From: Euprymna scolopes
Lineage: Eukaryota
Reading direction: 5' to 3' (one strand)
Length of the DNA: 64,000 bases
Assembly: GCA_053919585.1 (NCBI GenBank)
Contig: CM132795.1
Shown here in pieces: positions 9,473 through 63,439 of this stretch; the stretch's first letter is position 1, and every line of letters begins with the position of its first letter. The notes under the pieces are model-generated. The model searched no databases and was not told where the DNA came from. It worked only from the letters and a program-made list of their open reading frames with translations. A program made the position numbers and the translations under genes.

Positions 9473-9630
9473 ACTTAAATTCAGAATTTTAAAAAAATTT
9501 CTGTAAATTTTTTTTATGTAATACTTTTCCTGTGATCATTAGCATGTTCTATTAATTAATAAATATAATTCTATTATTTTTATTGTTGCTTATGTTGTTG
9601 ATGAATAGAATTTTAAAAAGTTAGGTATTT

Positions 9631-10739
9631 TCTTGAAAAAGGATTTCGGCCTCAACAGAAAGATGTTCAACAAAATGTTTAACCATAAAATTTACCAAAA
9701 ACTATTAATATTAAACTATAAAAAGAAAGATACTAGAATTTAAGCAAAAAATATTTTATTTCAACTCAATCAGATGTGCCTTATACACTAATAAAAATGC
9801 AATTGGCATTTTGTTGAACTTTTTAAGATTTTAAATATTTATAAATTTTCTCATTATAAAAAACGATTATTATATTGATTATAATTTTTTGACAGAAGAA
9901 ATAAAATGAATTGCATAAAAAACATTAGAAGACAAATTTTTAAATCATAAGAAAAATCTAAAGTCACTAAATTATCAATAAAGTTTGTCATAATAATACA
10001 TTTATTAGATTAATTTTAATTTGGAAAGATAGAAGTACAGTTAAAACATCCAGAATCAGCGAATTCATTACATTTTATCATAATAAAAACGATTGTTTTA
10101 TTTCAATGCTATTGATAAGAAAACATTTGTTTTACTTGATTAAAATTAATTAAACATAGATTATATCTGTAGTATATAAATATTTTTTTATAATGAAACA
10201 ATTTATTAATTTTTGCTGATTTACGATTTTTTCATTGCCGGTTTTTATTTTGCAAATTAAAAATAATCCAATAATCTTTTTTGATAATGAAAAAATGTGC
10301 TGACAATTAAGTGATTTTAAATATTTGAATATTTTTTTAAATGAACAATAAATTAAAATCAATTTACTAAATAATCATTTTTTTCAAGATTTATTTACAC
10401 AATTTACTAATATTTATTGATATAATTGGATAATTTTGCATTGTTCTTCTAATGTTTTATATTCATTTTATTTCTTCTGTCAAAAAATTATAATCAATAT
10501 AATAATCGTTTTTTATAATGAGAAAATTTATAAATATTTAAAATCTTAAAAAGTTCAACAAAATGCCAATTGCATTTTTATTAGTGCATAAGGCACATCT
10601 GATTGAGTTGAAATAAAATATTTTTTGCTTAAATTCTAGTATCTTTCTTTTTATAGTTTAATATTAATAGTTTTTGGTAAATTTTATGGTTAAACATTTT
10701 GTTGAACATCTTTCTGTTGAGGCCGAAATCCTTTTTCAA

Positions 10740-10742
<3 letters not shown>
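9631..10742. repeat. Long inverted repeat, ~305-bp near-perfect arms (9631-9935 / 10441-10742)
   Basis: TCTTGAAAAAGGATTTCGGCCTCAACAG... is the reverse complement of ...CTGTTGAGGCCGAAATCCTTTTTCAAGA; the right arm abuts (TA)n. Confidence 0.9.
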
Positions 10743-10796
<54 letters not shown>

Positions 10797-15340: not shown

Positions 15341-16304
15341 GTTTTACGAAAAATATATACATCCCTCCAAAAAAATCGTTCTTTGTTCCTTTAAACACAA
15401 AAAATACTTTTTCATTAATTAAAGAAAAATAACAAAAGTTGACAATAAATAAAGAGTAACTAAAACAGTAAATTTTATGAATTTATAGCGGCATAATCCG
15501 ACGGAATTTCGTCATCCACCGTGCGTTGCCGCGAGACTCACGCAAAAACGAGAATTAACTGCAGAAGTACCAAAATATTCTATTCTGTTAACGGAACTTT
15601 GATAATTACACATTGATTTATAATTTAGTTATTTACTACTAATCGAATATTTATGGAAATCAAAAATGCAATGGAATAGAATACAAGGGTACTTTTTAAA
15701 AATAATTTGATTACGAAATTTAATCCATCGGATTTTCAGCTCCTTTATAAACAAATAATCAGTTTACGTATTTTTGATAAGCATAAAAATGAATAAACGA
15801 ATTACTCCGTGAACCTTCAGCATTTGAAAAAAAAGTTTAGAAGTCTTTTAACAGTCGAATTAAAAGTCATTTGCGACTTTAAAGTTTTTAGCAAATAATC
15901 ATGTATGAAAAGATTTAAGGTTCTCGAAAAATATTGACATTCAATAGTTTTTATAAATAAACATTAAAAGTTATTTAACACCAATTTGCTACAGTTTTAT
16001 AAAAATTATTTCAATTCATGGTTTAATTAACAAACGCTACCGTATAAATTAAATTTAAATCTCAAAATCTTAGTGAAACAAAAAACAGCATTCTTTACAC
16101 GAAGGAAAAAAATGAATGCAAAACGACTCTCAGCAACGCCAAGCAGGAAGAGTTAATGAATCTATGATAGGTTGATTAAAAAGTAATAGTTCAAAATTAA
16201 TACTTAAAAGTTAATAGTTCAATATGATTCGTTTAAAGTTAATAGGTTTAGATTAAAAGTTCATAGCTGAAACTTAATAGTTCATAGTTAAAGTTAAAAA
16301 TTAA

Positions 16305-16500
16305 TATGATGGTTGTATATTTTTGAGATGAATATTAGTAATCATTTTTTGTATTATTTGAATTGTTTGGACTATTGTTTTCATCTTGGTTGAATAGAAT
16401 TGAGTGCGAAAACAACCAAGATGAAAATAATATTCCAAACAACCCAAATAATACAAAATAATTACTAATCCTTATCCCAAAAATATACAGACGTCATATA
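16305..16500. repeat. Inverted repeat of Penelope-like terminal sequence
   Basis: ...GACTATTGTTTTCATCTTGGTTG / CAACCAAGATGAAAATAATATTCCAAAC...; same family as the sequence following the hammerhead-like motif at ~18125. Confidence 0.7.
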
Positions 16501-16917
16501 AAAAACACGGAATGGACCCGAATTTATTTTTTTTTTAAATATATATAGACTCAGCGCTATTTGAATTGTGAAAGCAAAAAGAAACAAATATTTTTCACCA
16601 TTCACCAATAACATTTAGTCTAGAGTTGTAAGCCATGTTTAATTTCAGAACAGTTTCCGATTAGTTAGTTGTTCTACACAAGTCCTGGAGGTGAGTGGTT
16701 CTCAGTAGACAGTTCTTGAGTTGGAAGCCACAAAGCAAAAGATTCTTCATTCCGTGTTGACACGAAGAAAACATATGCGAAGTTGCTAAAGAAAAGGTTT
16801 AATCTTTATGTAGCAATTCTGGTTTCTTATTGGTTGGTAGCAGAACATGAATTAATTTGATTCATCAGTTCCTAGCAGCATCATTTATGAATAGAATCTC
16901 CCGATTATGCGGGATCA

Positions 16918-18052
16918 TACCCCATTCTACTTCTTGTATGATGGGATGTGTCTCCTAGCGGCTTCGGCTGCATGGAGACAGGGTAGTACCAGTCAAGGAT
17001 TCGTCACTTGACACTCAGCCCAACAGGTGAGGGGCCGGGAACCGGCCCAGCACCTGTTGGACTGAGGTACACCGCCTGAGTAACACCTAGGAGGTCCACC
17101 CTCCCAGGCCATGCCACCGGGCTTTCCGGTGGGGCAAGTTTATTGCTTGCTGCCTGAGGCGCCCCGACCGGGGAATGCCGACGGGGTTACTCAGGCAATT
17201 TTTAAAATTGCAGGAGTGCCCCTTCTTTAGGGGAGCCTGCGGGTATCCCACTTTCCGGCCTTGTGCCACATTTTTCTGATGTGGGCAGCAAATAAATATC
17301 TACCCCATTATAGTTCCTTTATGATGGGATGTGTCTCCTAGCGGCCTCGGCTGCAGGGAGACAGGGTAGTACATGTCAAGGATTCGTCACTTGACACTCA
17401 GCCCAACAGGTGAGGGGCCGGGAACCGGCCAAGCACCTGTTGGACTGAGGTACACCGCCTGGGTAATACCTAGGAGATCCACCCTCCCAGGCCATGCCAC
17501 CGGGCTTTCCGGTGGGGCAAGTTTATTGCTTGCTGCCTGAGGCGCCCCGACCGGGGAATGCCGACGGGGTTACTCAGGCAATTTTTTAAATTGCAGGAGT
17601 GCCCCTCCTTTAGGGGAGCCTGCGGGTATCCCACTTTCCGGCCTTGTGCCAAATATTGCCGATGTGGGCGGCAATTAAATATATACCCCATTATAGTTCC
17701 TTACTCGTGATGGGGGATGATCTCCTAGCGGCTTCACCTGCAGGGAGAAAGGGTAGAGTACTCGTCAAGGATTCGTTCTTGACACTCAGCCCGACAGGTG
17801 AGGGGGCCGGGAACCGGCCCAGCACTCGTCGAACTGAGGTACAACGCTTGGGTATCACCTAGGAGGTCCACCCTCCCAGGCTATGCCACCCGGCTTTCGG
17901 GTGGAGCAAGTTTATTGCTTTCGCCTGAGGAATGCTGATGGGGTGACCAGGAAATTTTTGTTGCGGCAAGAGTGCCCCTCCTACTCTCCACCTTCCGGCC
18001 TTGTGCCACATTTTGCTGCGGTGGACAGCAAATATATACCCGGTTATAGTTC
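16918..18052 (+). repeat. Tandem array of a 383-bp highly structured GC-rich unit (starts 16918, 17301, 17684, plus ~16 bp of a 4th); candidate non-autonomous retroelement RNA
   Basis: 383-bp period for the first two units, ~353 bp for the third; about 10 hairpins per unit including UUCG loops; compensatory changes between copies. Confidence 0.85.
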
Positions 18053-52660: not shown

Positions 52661-53054
52661 TTCTAAATAAAAATAAAAAATAAACAAAAAATATAATTAA
52701 AAGAATCGTTTTCAGCATCGAAAAGCGATCCAAATCTTTACGATTCAGATACCGATTCCGATACCCCAAAATGTTCCGATTGTTCCGATTCCCGATTCCG
52801 GTCTAAACATTATGAATGAAAATATACGCACATAAACTTACTTTATATTGTCACAGACTTCTAAACCTTCAAACCTAAATTATACTTCTTAATGCGATTC
52901 ATTGAAATGAGTTTTATTGTTTTTTTGGTATTTGCATTGATGTATCTATCCCTTAAGAGTTAATCAAATCAATTGTAAAACTGGCAACAGTGGCTAACAT
53001 TCTTTTGAATGCAATTCTGAATTTTGGAGATGAGATGTGAATGTTCGTGTTAAG

Positions 53055-53245
53055 TTAATTAATCTTACTATTATTCTCATTTTGGATGTTATTAGCACAA
53101 CGTTTCGGTGGCTGCAACCTGCAACCTTCTTCAAGTTGAAAAAGAAGCATGTTTTCAACACCCGAAGAAGGTCGCAGATTGCAGCGACCAAAACGTTGTG
53201 CTAATAACACCCAAGATGACAATAATAGTCCGATTAATCAACATA
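53055..53245. repeat. Inverted pair of degenerate Penelope-type hammerhead motifs
   Basis: TTGAAGA..GAAACGTTGTGC (minus) and CCGAAGA..AAAACGTTGTGC (plus), each with different core mutations. Confidence 0.65.
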
Positions 53246-54307
53246 ACACAAGCATTATTTTGTCTGTTTAGCATAAATATGTCTGATTAACAAAGTCAAT
53301 ATTTACTTGCCACCCCACAAGTGTAGATTACGACACAAGATCGTTCTTATGCAGAGAAAATGCAGCTCTCCAAAAAGGGGCACTGGATTAGGATAAAAAT
53401 TATAATTAACTCAGTCTAGAAAGATTTATTTTTCAGTGAACGAAGAAAGAAAAGATTAAATGTCGTATCAGATTATACACTAAACTTTGCCATTAGTCAA
53501 AAACACTAACGAACCGCAAAGGTTGAAATAAACATGTTCCTCTTTTATGAGTGAATCATGAAAATATATTTAAAAAAACAATGAACACTTGAGTTGCATA
53601 TAAACTGAGATCATATGTTCCGAGAAAAAAGCAATTGAACATTCAGTAAAACAAATGTCTATTAAATGCCAACCGTTTCAGCGATCAACGCGTAGATACA
53701 AAAAAAAGTTAATCGTTTAATATATGTAAAGAAGCTATTGGATAACGGTGAAAGTTTTGGTAATAGAATTGCAAGCATTTCAAAGGGGGGCCCAGGGACT
53801 TCAAAGGTTGGCATGAAAATGTTCTTAAAGAGAAACAAATGCGAGGGTAAACCTAAGAATTGCGTGTCTTGTATTGATAAAAACAAATGTTTAAAGAATA
53901 AGCAAGTTTAAAAGAGGTTCTATTACTAATGGCACAGTTTGAAGGCATTACGGTTTATTGTCATTGCCTTTAGAATTTTAAGTCTTCTCAAGGGGAGACA
54001 ACTGAGTGTGGAGTGTACTGAATATTTCCGTAATGGACTGTAGATTAGCGTAATGGTAACCAGCGTGGCCTATTAAGTCAAGAATGACGAGAGGAAATGT
54101 TATAGGATCTGTTGTTTTAACTAAGACACCACTACTATTGAACCCGTGCAGTTTTCCAATTTATGTATAGAATGACGCCTGCAGATCCAAGGGTTATTAT
54201 CATGAAGTTGACATAAATATATGTTTCAGCAACCAATAACGAAGAAAGTGTTCATATGACTAACACTACAAAAATGTAATTATATTCCAACCCTGTCATT
54301 AGGATAC

Positions 54308-58143: not shown

Positions 58144-58982
58144 TATAAAAACCAATGCTTTTTGTTAAAAAGTTCATGAAAATTTCATGACAGTGCATTT
58201 TATTTGGGTTTTCTAAACAAACAGCGTGTATCTGCAAAATTCCTAGCAGAAAATATGCACGGCTAAAAACATGAAAAAAATGTGCAATGAATCTGTTAGC
58301 AGTGTAGATAAATAGAATTACGCGCAGAGAACCCGTGAAACGGAGACGCTTACACAGAGGAAGGAATAGATTTGTGTAAACAGCGAAGTTTTTTTATGCC
58401 ATGTGCAAACACGTATGCGCATACGCACAAATAGTCCCTAGCGTTTTTCATAGCTATTGGAGTTCAGTCTGACTACTAGAGCAACAATGAACTGAGGAAT
58501 GGATTTTCTTATCGCATCAAGATCATTAATAAAGAGAGTAACACTTTTAAAACTAACAAGGTCGATAACCATTAGTCGCGTGCTCTCGTGTAATGAATCA
58601 ATGCGTGAATGTAGGATTGACATGAAATTATTAAAGATAAACTAAAATAACCGAAAAATGGGCTGAAATGACTTAAATAAATAAAAAGTAAATGACTTAG
58701 AAGGACTTAAATGAACTAAAGGATGAATTAAATGACCTTAAGAATGACTTGAGTGCTTAAAAAATAACTGAAATCCTTCAAAAACAACTTGAATGATCTG
58801 GAGAATGACTTGAATGGCTTTGAGACTGATTGGTTGTAAAGTGGGTTATCATTTTACATTAAATTGATACAGAAAAGTGATCCCCCACTTTATATAACAA
58901 AAATTATTTGATTTAGGGAATTTGAAACGTTATATGTGACCAAGGAACAGTTACAGACATAAGTACAGCATGTAGTAAGAAA

Positions 58983-59023
58983 GATACTACACTTTGATCT
59001 TGGCCAAAAGGCCAAGAAAAGCG
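58983..59023 (-). pseudogene. U2: U2 snRNA 5' fragment (~first 40 nt)
   Basis: Minus strand CGCTTTTCTTGGCCTTTTGGCCAAGATCAAAGTGTAGTATC matches the U2 5' end (stem I and branch-point recognition sequence GUAGUA). Confidence 0.85.
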
Positions 59024-59357
59024 GTATTTATTTGCTCCCCCACCGAGCAAATTAGGCACAAGGCCGATTTTTAATGTGAGGAGCGAAGGGGAAATGGGGG
59101 CCAGCTCCCCGGGGAGTAGGGGAGCTGGATAGTGACAATTGGTATGAAGGGTTGCCCCTACATTGACCAAGGTCTTATATGTGGGGGCGATCCCACATAT
59201 GGTCTTTGCTTGCAGTATCTGCCGGAACAGATACTACACTTTGATCTTGATATATAATTTATTTCGTTAAAATGAAAATTACAATCAAAATAATTCAATG
59301 TAAAATTAAAATAAATTAAAAATACACTTTGATCTTGACCAAAAGGCTAAGAAAAGC
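59024..59357 (-). mobile_element. U2-headed SINE-like element (U2 head 59225-59357 interrupted, structured body, CUUGU tail module)
   Basis: U2 5' sequence ..AAGATCAAAGTGTAGTATCTGTTC, then ~200 nt of non-U2 hairpins, then a second U2 head. Confidence 0.65.
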
Positions 59358-60481
59358 TTAAAACACTAAGAACAGCATCTATTAATAACAGACCTTTGAT
59401 CTTAATCAAAAAGGCCAAGCACAAAAGTGTTATGGACAGACCGACCGACAGACCGATCGACGGATCGACGGAGTGACTTATAGAGCCGCTTGCACGCGAC
59501 TAAAAAGAGAATAACGTGTTTTATTTGATGTTTTGCTAATGAAGATTAGTAGCCAGAATAAAGAGCAATAACAAAAAAAAAGCCATAAACAACTTCAAAG
59601 ATGTCAAAACCCCGTAAAGAAGGGTTAAGTTAAACCTCTTCTTCTCTTATCTCCACCGTACAGATGGACTAGTAAAGAATATCGATTGATCTAAAGTATG
59701 CCAAATCTACTTCTTCAACGCAAAAGACTAAGGCAATTTTTTTCTTGTAATCCCCAAAAATTAACCGTTATAATTTCTCTTTACTAACGTCGTATTTCGC
59801 ACTAACAAATCCCCGTAATCCCTAAATGAAAACTGGCAGGACTCTTTCTCATTTAAACCGTAATTTACACTAGCAACTATCAAATTCGATATTTTCATTC
59901 AACTGTCAAAAAATAACATCTGCCTATCCTCCCCAAATTGTCCTCCTTAAAATAGCTATTCCTCACATATGAAAATTAACGTCACATGTAAAAAGAACCC
60001 ATCTATAAGCCCACAGTATCTGCTTCTCTTTTTTTCCTCGGTTCCCGTACCTGATAGGCAAAATAGATGTGCCGCCACTTGTGTGAGTAGTTTCCTTTAT
60101 TACATTTCTTAATCAAGAGGGTCCATTTTGGGGAGCTGTATCTAATTTTGCCTTTGAGAGGATGGAAGTAAATAGGGACTTCATTTAAACTTCTAGGATA
60201 TAAAAGTAAAAACGTGCTAATATATGGTTGACTATAATAATCGATTAGATCAGGTAATTTAACGCTTGCTCACGACCACCTTGCACCTTTCTTTTTTCTA
60301 TAATCATTAATGTGTCATTGTCTTCATACTTAACATAATCCACCATTGTAGGAGGTACATGCCGATTCTAAATAAGAAACAGTACACAACATGTATAATC
60401 TCTCTCTCTTTCATTCTCTCTCTCACTCTCTCTCTCTCTCTCACTCTCTCATTCTCTGTTCTCGCTTAGATATTATCTCTA

Positions 60482-63070: not shown

Positions 63071-63147
63071 GGTAATTAGTAAAAACCTGAAGAAAGTGTT
63101 CAATACTATTGCAGAGCAAATATGCGTTTTATTTTTTTACCATTTTA

Positions 63148-63218
63148 TCTGTTTAGTTACACATGTTTCGGTTACCGAATCGTATTAGCGATCCAGTAAC
63201 CTCGTCAGACTTTACAGA
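63148..63218 (-). ncRNA. Type I hammerhead ribozyme (intact); mutated inverted copy at 63226-63296
   Basis: UCUGU-AA-AGU CUGACGA GGUUACUGGAUCG-cuaaua-CGAUUCGGUAACC GAAA C-augu-G UA^ ACU-AA-ACAGA: all core nucleotides and helices I-III present. Confidence 0.85.
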
Positions 63219-63439
63219 AAGGTTTTCTGTAACGTCTGACGAGATTACTGGATCGCTAATACGATTCGGTAGCCGAAACATGTTTAACTAAACAGATAAA
63301 ACGGTAAATATAAAATAAAACGTATATATTAGACATTAACATGAGATTATAGGTTTGTATAAATACCTGTTCACATACACCTTTTTACGATAAAGCTAGA
63401 ACCGAGAATTAGACAGAATCGAGCAATTGCATCGACAAC

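Follow-up and report, generated by a model that had tools for sequence, protein, structure and literature searches.

What is the U2-like repeat on the minus strand at 58983-59357 of the window, i.e. of the whole 64,000-nucleotide stretch of DNA analysed here, and why does it fold back over the branch-point recognition sequence (GUAGUA) of its own U2 part? The original prediction was of an independent U2-headed SINE-like element, separate from U2-targeting LINEs, whose body may mask GUAGUA, and the motifs that it named are all present. We suggest that the repeat very probably belongs to a retroposon that codes for no protein, has a head derived from U2 and a tail of the LINE type, stands in mixed head-to-tail arrays and is likely copied by target-primed reverse transcription with the proteins of K2, a family of U2-associated LINEs of the L1 group (Tx1/Keno-like).

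The full unit consists of a head corresponding to U2 nt 1-46 (numbered after the own U2 gene of the same genome), a 12-bp fold-back over GUAGUA, a body of about 160 nt and a LINE-like tail; unit lengths range over 158-247 bp. The heads resemble nt 1-46 of the genome's own U2 gene with stem I altered. Instead of the two tandem heads predicted, four of them (at 59420, 59357, 59249 and 59022) are found between 59420 and 58977. The prediction was right about the hairpins of the body and about the perfect stem at 59016-58999; stem I is perfect in the downstream head only, and that of the 59357 head is imperfect. Nor is the claimed span one element throughout, as it includes the 3' end of a LINE of a second family, K1, inserted at nt 22 of the upstream head (Table).

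Table. Features of the locus (window positions; -, minus strand)
Feature	Position	Strand	Basis
Host: Helentron-type non-autonomous DNA element (HINE/DINE-1-like), about 950 bp	58555..59505	-	features compared with the available part of PMC4067079
Host 11-bp subterminal inverted repeats	59493-59503, 58572-58582		
Host GTCG/GTCT microsatellite	59434-59469		
Host degenerate U2-like head	59394-59420	-	
Upstream U2-like head, 5' part, severed by the K1-type insertion	59323..59357	-	
5'-truncated 3' end of a K1-type LINE, with about 14 head bases duplicated around it	59250..59322	-	aligns to a longer LINE 3' end in L002, which aligns to K1
Retroposon unit, subfamily A: U2 nt 22-46, fold-back, body, tail	59024..59249	-	94-97% matches
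U2 nt 22-46: head remainder downstream of the K1-type insertion, with GUAGUA and the nt-39 site	59225..59249	-	identical to the K1 3' junction in a real U2 gene
12-bp fold-back helix over the U2 branch-point recognition sequence	59211..59238	-	predicted fold
Subfamily-A body, with hairpins 59200-59177 and 59128-59101	59067..59224	-	not significantly similar to the 5' UTRs of K1/K2
LINE-related tail: GGCCTTGTGCCTAA motif, small hairpin, TAAATAC end	59024..59066	-	alignment to K1/K2 3' ends
Downstream U2-like head, carried by the host; insertion target	58977..59022	-	same head and downstream sequence in SINE-free hosts L181, L185, L186 and L190

Rfam matches U2 at 58839-59025 (E 5.5e-7) and 59146-59358 (E 0.002), both under the gathering score, since U2 makes up no more than the first ~46 nt of each head, and reveals no ribozyme or other known RNA besides U2; no tRNA is detected in the element by a tRNA search. 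The RNA of 59024-59249 has a predicted fold of -84.2 kcal/mol (z -5.2), and none of 200 shuffles is equally stable. The hairpin over GUAGUA is present in this fold, with 59238-59227 paired to 59222-59211; it is, however, 12 bp long with two G-U pairs and not 10 bp with one, as had been proposed.

The units lack the tRNA-, 5S- or 7SL-derived head with an internal promoter of classical Pol III SINEs, and runs of 4-5 T occur inside heads or bodies. They end in a structured tail with TAAATAC(C), not in poly(A). Poly(A) RNA runs hold many unit copies, in assembled contigs that lack strand, start and level; those RNA runs holding the unit that have a label are marked as mollusc or invertebrate metagenome. 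Transcription probably relies on outside, putatively Pol II, promoters.

The window is part of contig C13 in an assembly of 5.9 Gb; the large contigs listed are numbered up to C46, which would fit a decapodiform cephalopod. All 40 scored candidates (one being the window itself) match the unit over most of its length at 94-97%, and 33,300 sites in the genome match a 33-base part of the tail exactly, against none for the reversed control. The arrays were sampled from the first 100 listed of these matches, lying in 37 stretches of contig C1; the sample is blind to context and biased towards young copies. Five subfamilies, A to E, have the same head and fold-back and different bodies. One tail is shared by A (the window type), B, C and E, and that of D is a variant. 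Measured against the column majority, the median divergence is 2.2% in A (24 units), 1.5% in B (64), 1.6% in C (39), 3.2% in D (17) and 5.1% in E (6). The family is a young and very abundant non-autonomous retroposon of a likely mollusc. The units are multi-copy and U2-headed, target-site duplications occur, and most copies carry the fold-back, which bears out the central claim of a U2-headed SINE-like element.

Units are arranged head-to-tail with the subfamilies mixed in no fixed order, and subfamily D forms the last unit of its arrays. Of the 166 tails detected in the 37 stretches of C1, 131 are joined, across two intervening bases, to U2 nt 39 of the next unit. Over all loci fetched, the 333 distinct SINE or K2 junctions include 190 at nt 39, 54 at the start of the host head, 7 at nt 27 and 7 at U2 +1. 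None of the 333 is antisense at the hairpin; hence the first nick is directional, and a fully symmetric palindromic target was rejected. Direct repeats of 13-20 bp, in one case a TA run, flank 8 of the 34 arrays that have a detected head, compared with 10 of 1122 mismatched pairs. A clear flanking duplication is absent from 26 of the 34 arrays, which counts against the proposed retrotransposition. The 63-unit array L116/L117, which looks amplified by duplication and is a further point against it, is kept in the tail-junction and flanking-duplication counts and left out of the shared-loop, divergence and age-gradient analyses and of the pairing counts for heads and inner units.

Adjacent units of different subfamilies have a rare variant of the hairpin loop in common in 8 of 32 pairs, compared with 7 of 73 in front of the common loop, as would follow from occasional copying of the loop out of the target; the narrower test with the D-type loop alone is not significant (p 0.075). 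No significant age gradient is found within arrays for A-C units (Spearman p 0.19), which again counts against the proposed mechanism, and the higher divergence of last array units (3.2% versus 1.5-1.9%) is confounded with subfamily. As side observations, hairpin loops inverted between the arms occur in copies at L004, L084/L119 and L196. A very short element, composed of U2 nt 1-62 and a tail with duplicated flanks, lies on the minus strand at L032:1470-1620, directly after a unit of a 383-bp type. Three tandem copies of this GC-rich 383-bp unit, with the same type of tail (GGCCTTGTGCC ... AAATAAATA) and no Rfam match, stand on the plus strand of the window at 16917-18052; relatives adjoin U2-headed units at L032 and L111. 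The 383-bp unit is likely another retroposon, moved by the same LINE group to a different target.

What, then, was the target at this locus? Besides the features given in the Table, the host element has a 3' hairpin and T-rich flanks. When its SINE-free right end is used as the query, 12 of 29 other host copies show no SINE tail within 1.5 kb upstream, and 17 hold one to five tails each, with three junction types and some units truncated at the 5' end. Empty hosts carry the same U2-like head and the same sequence after 58977; thus the downstream head is the target, brought by the host, and not the second member of a tandem pair. The host head was hit by the unit first and the K1-type LINE arrived later. 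Elsewhere in the window, at 9626-10746, 16301-16502, 53040-53256 and 63120-63327, we note long inverted repeats of the fold-back/MITE-like DNA type.

The same host copies bear on whether the unit could be a satellite-like passenger of the Helentron-type element, spread by rolling-circle copying and unequal exchange and not by retrotransposition. Parts of the host are found in nearly all of the 30 copies closest to that of the window, one long array has repeated higher-order blocks, and internal tandem repeats are described for hosts of the HINE type in the available part of PMC4067079. However, about 5 of the 37 tail-sampled stretches are host-associated, as judged by eye. Some hosts are empty, the junctions are of three types, units can be truncated, and duplications of 13-20 bp are seen outside the host; all of this speaks against such copying. 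We consider this reading very improbable. The passenger route is largely refuted as the sole route and is likely as a secondary one for subfamily A.

For retrotransposition the proteins have to come from elsewhere, and the real U2 genes point to their likely source. These genes form a 764-bp tandem array on contig C9, with 1,175 exact matches genome-wide. Among the first 100 listed, all four large gaps in the array are elements of 7.1-7.6 kb with two long ORFs, one of them K1 and three K2. ORF2 of K1 and K2 has an N-terminal Exo_endo_phos, an RVT_1 and a zf-RVT domain, and its nearest solved relative is L1 ORF2p (E 1e-63, versus 5e-19 for R2). Both LINEs start after U2 nt 46; the 3' end lies at U2 nt 22 in K1 and at U2 +1 in K2. 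Two of three K2 copies have a 5' U2 piece that differs from that of the array, and variants of the piece recur where K2 stands in tandem on K2; the piece thus belongs to K2 itself. Several observations on these families stand apart. U2 gene variants with other stem-I loops and other upstream sequence occur at L033 and L034 (C4) and at L127 and L212 (C713), and K2 is also found at +1 of the C713 variant. In one case only, a full-length relative of K2 with an 18-bp duplication is inserted between a TATA box, about 25 bp upstream of it, and an intact histone H4 ORF, about 30 bp downstream, and thus close to where transcription is expected to start (L173:1550-1890, L218; G000:C7:166.535-166.544 Mb). 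Headless K2 relatives form head-to-tail arrays of ~7-kb units, in which each tail is followed by the 5' end of the next copy (G000:C19:152.70-152.79 Mb, C38:61.45-61.50 Mb, C41, C4 and C10; L153-L159).

The tails of K1, K2 and the short units have in common a GGCCTT..GTGCCTAA motif, a hairpin and a TAAATA end. Seventeen bases of the SINE tail are identical to the K1 3' end, which none of 200 shuffles equals; for the K2 3' end 0-2 of 200 do. This motif is nearer to K1 than to K2 and so counts against K2 as the partner. The last eight tail bases, in turn, are the same in K2 and the short units. The 3' ends of the best 30 K2 copies lie at nt 39 of SINE heads (10), at +1 of real U2 (9, three of them at loci already in the gene-array set), at +1 of K2's own head (3) and elsewhere (8). 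In real U2 genes the 3' junction is at +1 for K2 (9/9) and at nt 22 for K1 (1/1), and nt 39 is used only in SINE or LINE heads. A headless K2-like LINE at an inner nt-39 site is flanked by a 16-18-bp duplication that spans the hairpin. Since K2 shares both the tail ending and the nt-39 insertion site with the short units, it is, judged from sequence, their likely partner. The nt-27 junctions (7/333) and the tail motif nearer to K1 mean that other LINE families probably contribute, and the nt-22 and nt-27 junctions are likely due to them.

The supposed separation from U2-targeting LINEs is therefore not supported. A Utopia terminus is ruled out, as the LINEs in the U2 genes carry an apurinic endonuclease, but the tail and the insertion site are common to the units and the Keno-like LINEs. 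Only the tail is common to the units and K1/K2, since the alignments of the bodies to the K1/K2 5' UTRs are no better than those of shuffles (19-175 of 200 shuffles as good for A-D; for E one pyrimidine-run match, 4/200). An origin of the body by internal deletion of K1 or K2, to which a GCAAGGACCAG-like motif seemingly common by eye had pointed, was rejected on the same alignments.

We base the proposed mechanism on the head, the tail, the copy number, the target duplications, the 5'-truncated copies, and the tail ending and nt-39 junction common to K2 and the units, all of which are observed. At first, proteins of the K2 type would bind the tail of the unit RNA. The LINE endonuclease would then nick an ATC-NN-TTC-like site, which is present at both U2 +1 and nt 39; the nick would fall at U2 +1, or at nt 39 once the head has lost +1. 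The tail would prime synthesis, and a second nick 13-20 bp further on would yield the duplication. Finally, a full-length cDNA would anneal via its own U2 head, giving a seamless 5' junction and a rebuilt target. With the target rebuilt by each insertion, the arrays would keep growing. In the window the target was the U2-like head in the Helentron-type element, later struck by the K1-type LINE.

An alternative is that the arrays are made in one step, either from multimeric read-through transcripts or by a reverse transcriptase that jumps from one nt-39-processed RNA template to another, and that U2-like DNA is no real target. The tails do precede apparent RNA 5' ends (U2 +1, K2's own start and near the histone H4 start), and Kojima 2015, in the available part of PMC4494074, invokes template switching for the heads of SINEU. 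However, the genomic U2 array units that hold K2 keep an intact spacer on either side of it, the target is duplicated at the inner nt-39 site, hosts occur both empty and filled, and loops appear to derive from the target. This makes one-step array formation highly unlikely.

The proposed K2-driven mechanism has a further weak point. On contig C1 no exact SINE tail stands before U2 +1 and one stands before real U2 downstream sequence, and a master copy inside a real U2 gene, sought in this way, was not found on C1. SINE tails are thus missing at U2 +1 although K2 often inserts there, which counts against the mechanism and needs an extra assumption, either that homology decides the site of completion or that the gene array is purged. 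We conjecture that SINE heads, with their rewritten stem I, would not anneal at U2 +1, which would account for the missing tails; the K2 head is true U2.

All five subfamilies have the fold-back. In 49 of 54 heads and in 112 of 117 inner units at least 10 of 11 pairs are formed, versus 52 of about 5,000 random windows. Among 137 distinct SINE heads, classed by the start of the arm and thus a set that leans towards pairing, all 11 pairs are kept in 105 and a two-sided change of the helix occurs in one. The sole common variant of the arm is A or G opposite U (101 and 27 of 137), which keeps the pair while the loops vary. Hence the fold-back is conserved without covariation. The predicted pairing within GUAGUA covers five of six bases in the K2 head and three in the K1 head, and the head of the host also folds back over the motif. 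In further U2-headed repeats, at several loci, the start of the body is a nearly perfect reverse complement of U2 nt 31-42, which suggests either more families or a repeated origin of the fold-back.

In one reading, the fold-back is kept because hiding GUAGUA in the predicted helix spares splicing from an abundant RNA. The helix in every subfamily, the pair-preserving arm variant beside variable loops, the folded K2 and host heads and the near reverse complement in other U2-headed bodies agree with such masking. Two-sided changes in only one head of 137 do not, nor do the three of six GUAGUA bases predicted to stay free in the K1 head. Masking is also disfavoured because a U2 fragment ending at nt 46, which has neither stem IIa nor an Sm site, is not expected to assemble into a U2 snRNP. 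Moreover, in DNA the fold-back forms an inverted repeat, the inner part of which corresponds in span to the 16-18-bp target duplication at another locus (L209/L150), and a snap-back at the 5' junction would give the same repeat without selection. We therefore hold masking to be rather unlikely. A role at the DNA level is at least as plausible, and an origin as a by-product of snap-back fits as well.

One such DNA-level role, which we regard as improbable, is that of a self-built landing pad. The inverted repeat after U2 nt 46 would make the head the preferred site of an endonuclease otherwise aimed at Pol II start sites (U2 +1, and in one relative about 25 bp after the histone H4 TATA box); SINEs and LINEs would insert into one another's heads, make use of borrowed promoters and leave the real U2 genes alone. 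If true, this would be a self-targeting retroposon ecosystem with a LINE that targets transcription starts.

The family is young, far larger than those described and has an intact, sequence-matched likely partner in the U2 gene array, which makes mobilisation, target choice and promoter use directly testable. The precise insertion of K2, at U2 +1 or nt 39, also marks a site-specific endonuclease target that is new and may be of use in targeted insertion. If the host is a decapodiform cephalopod, a large SINE-like fraction is added where SINEs are reported to be scarce (PMC8967140, available part). Tables of the Octopus vulgaris annotation list SINE classes 'U' and 'U-L1', undescribed in the available part of PMC13282606, so that a U-type SINE label in a cephalopod exists. 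Our literature search, which covered few subscription papers and left Repbase Reports and Dfam outside its scope, found no description of a U2-headed SINE in a mollusc.

Among known systems, the host resembles HINE/DINE-1 non-autonomous Helentrons, as given in the available part of PMC4067079, in its subterminal inverted repeats, microsatellite, 3' hairpin and T-rich flanks; it differs in that its interior holds U2-like heads acting as a landing site for retroelements. Utopia and the Ciona U2_sat (PMC4640811, in part) are alike in the U2 target, occasional tandem insertion and insertion into U2-derived repeats. However, Utopia has a restriction-like endonuclease after the RT, and K1/K2 the apurinic type at the N-terminus; unlike U2_sat, the present units are dispersed retroposons with duplications and not a satellite. 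K1 and K2 resemble Keno, compared here by its description (PMC4494074 and PMC4640811, both in part), as they have two ORFs, an apurinic-type endonuclease and an RT of the L1 group and sit in U2 genes; homologues at 47-75% identity are unnamed. The nt-39 junction in SINE heads equals within one base the 3' junction of Keno and Utopia (nt 39; Kojima and Jurka 2015, PMC4640811, in part). Unlike in Keno, this junction is not used by K1/K2 in real U2 genes, where K2 joins at +1 and K1 at nt 22, and K2 has a U2 head of its own.

The units are of the same kind as SINEU with Tx1. In the available part of PMC4494074, SINEU is described only from old copies in crocodilians; these have poly(A) tails, can be inserted in tandem and target a Mariner element, Tx1-Mar is inferred to be the partner, and Kojima 2015 leaves SINEU transcription as an open question. 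Like SINEU-1, -2 and -3, they are short (<500 bp), non-coding, dispersed, high-copy retroposons with a U2-derived head, target-site duplications, tandem insertions and no evident Pol III promoter. In both cases sites within a DNA transposon are preferred, a target preference is common with a Tx1-type LINE, and mobilisation is ascribed to Tx1-clade LINEs, some of them U2-headed (PMC4494074, in part). Unlike SINEU, the present units have a structured tail shared with LINEs instead of poly(A), an intact likely partner that is nearly identical among its many copies and has the same tail and junction as they do, and a preference mainly for their own U2 head, which leads to mixed arrays. A fold-back over GUAGUA is not mentioned for SINEU in the available text of PMC4494074, and SINEU copies are 1-17% diverged there, versus 1.5-5% in the present units. 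These descriptions set the units apart from the crocodilian families, of which they are probably not members, and their origin is likely independent. They extend the kind to a likely mollusc, and what is new is the host group, the identification of a likely partner and the self-targeting.
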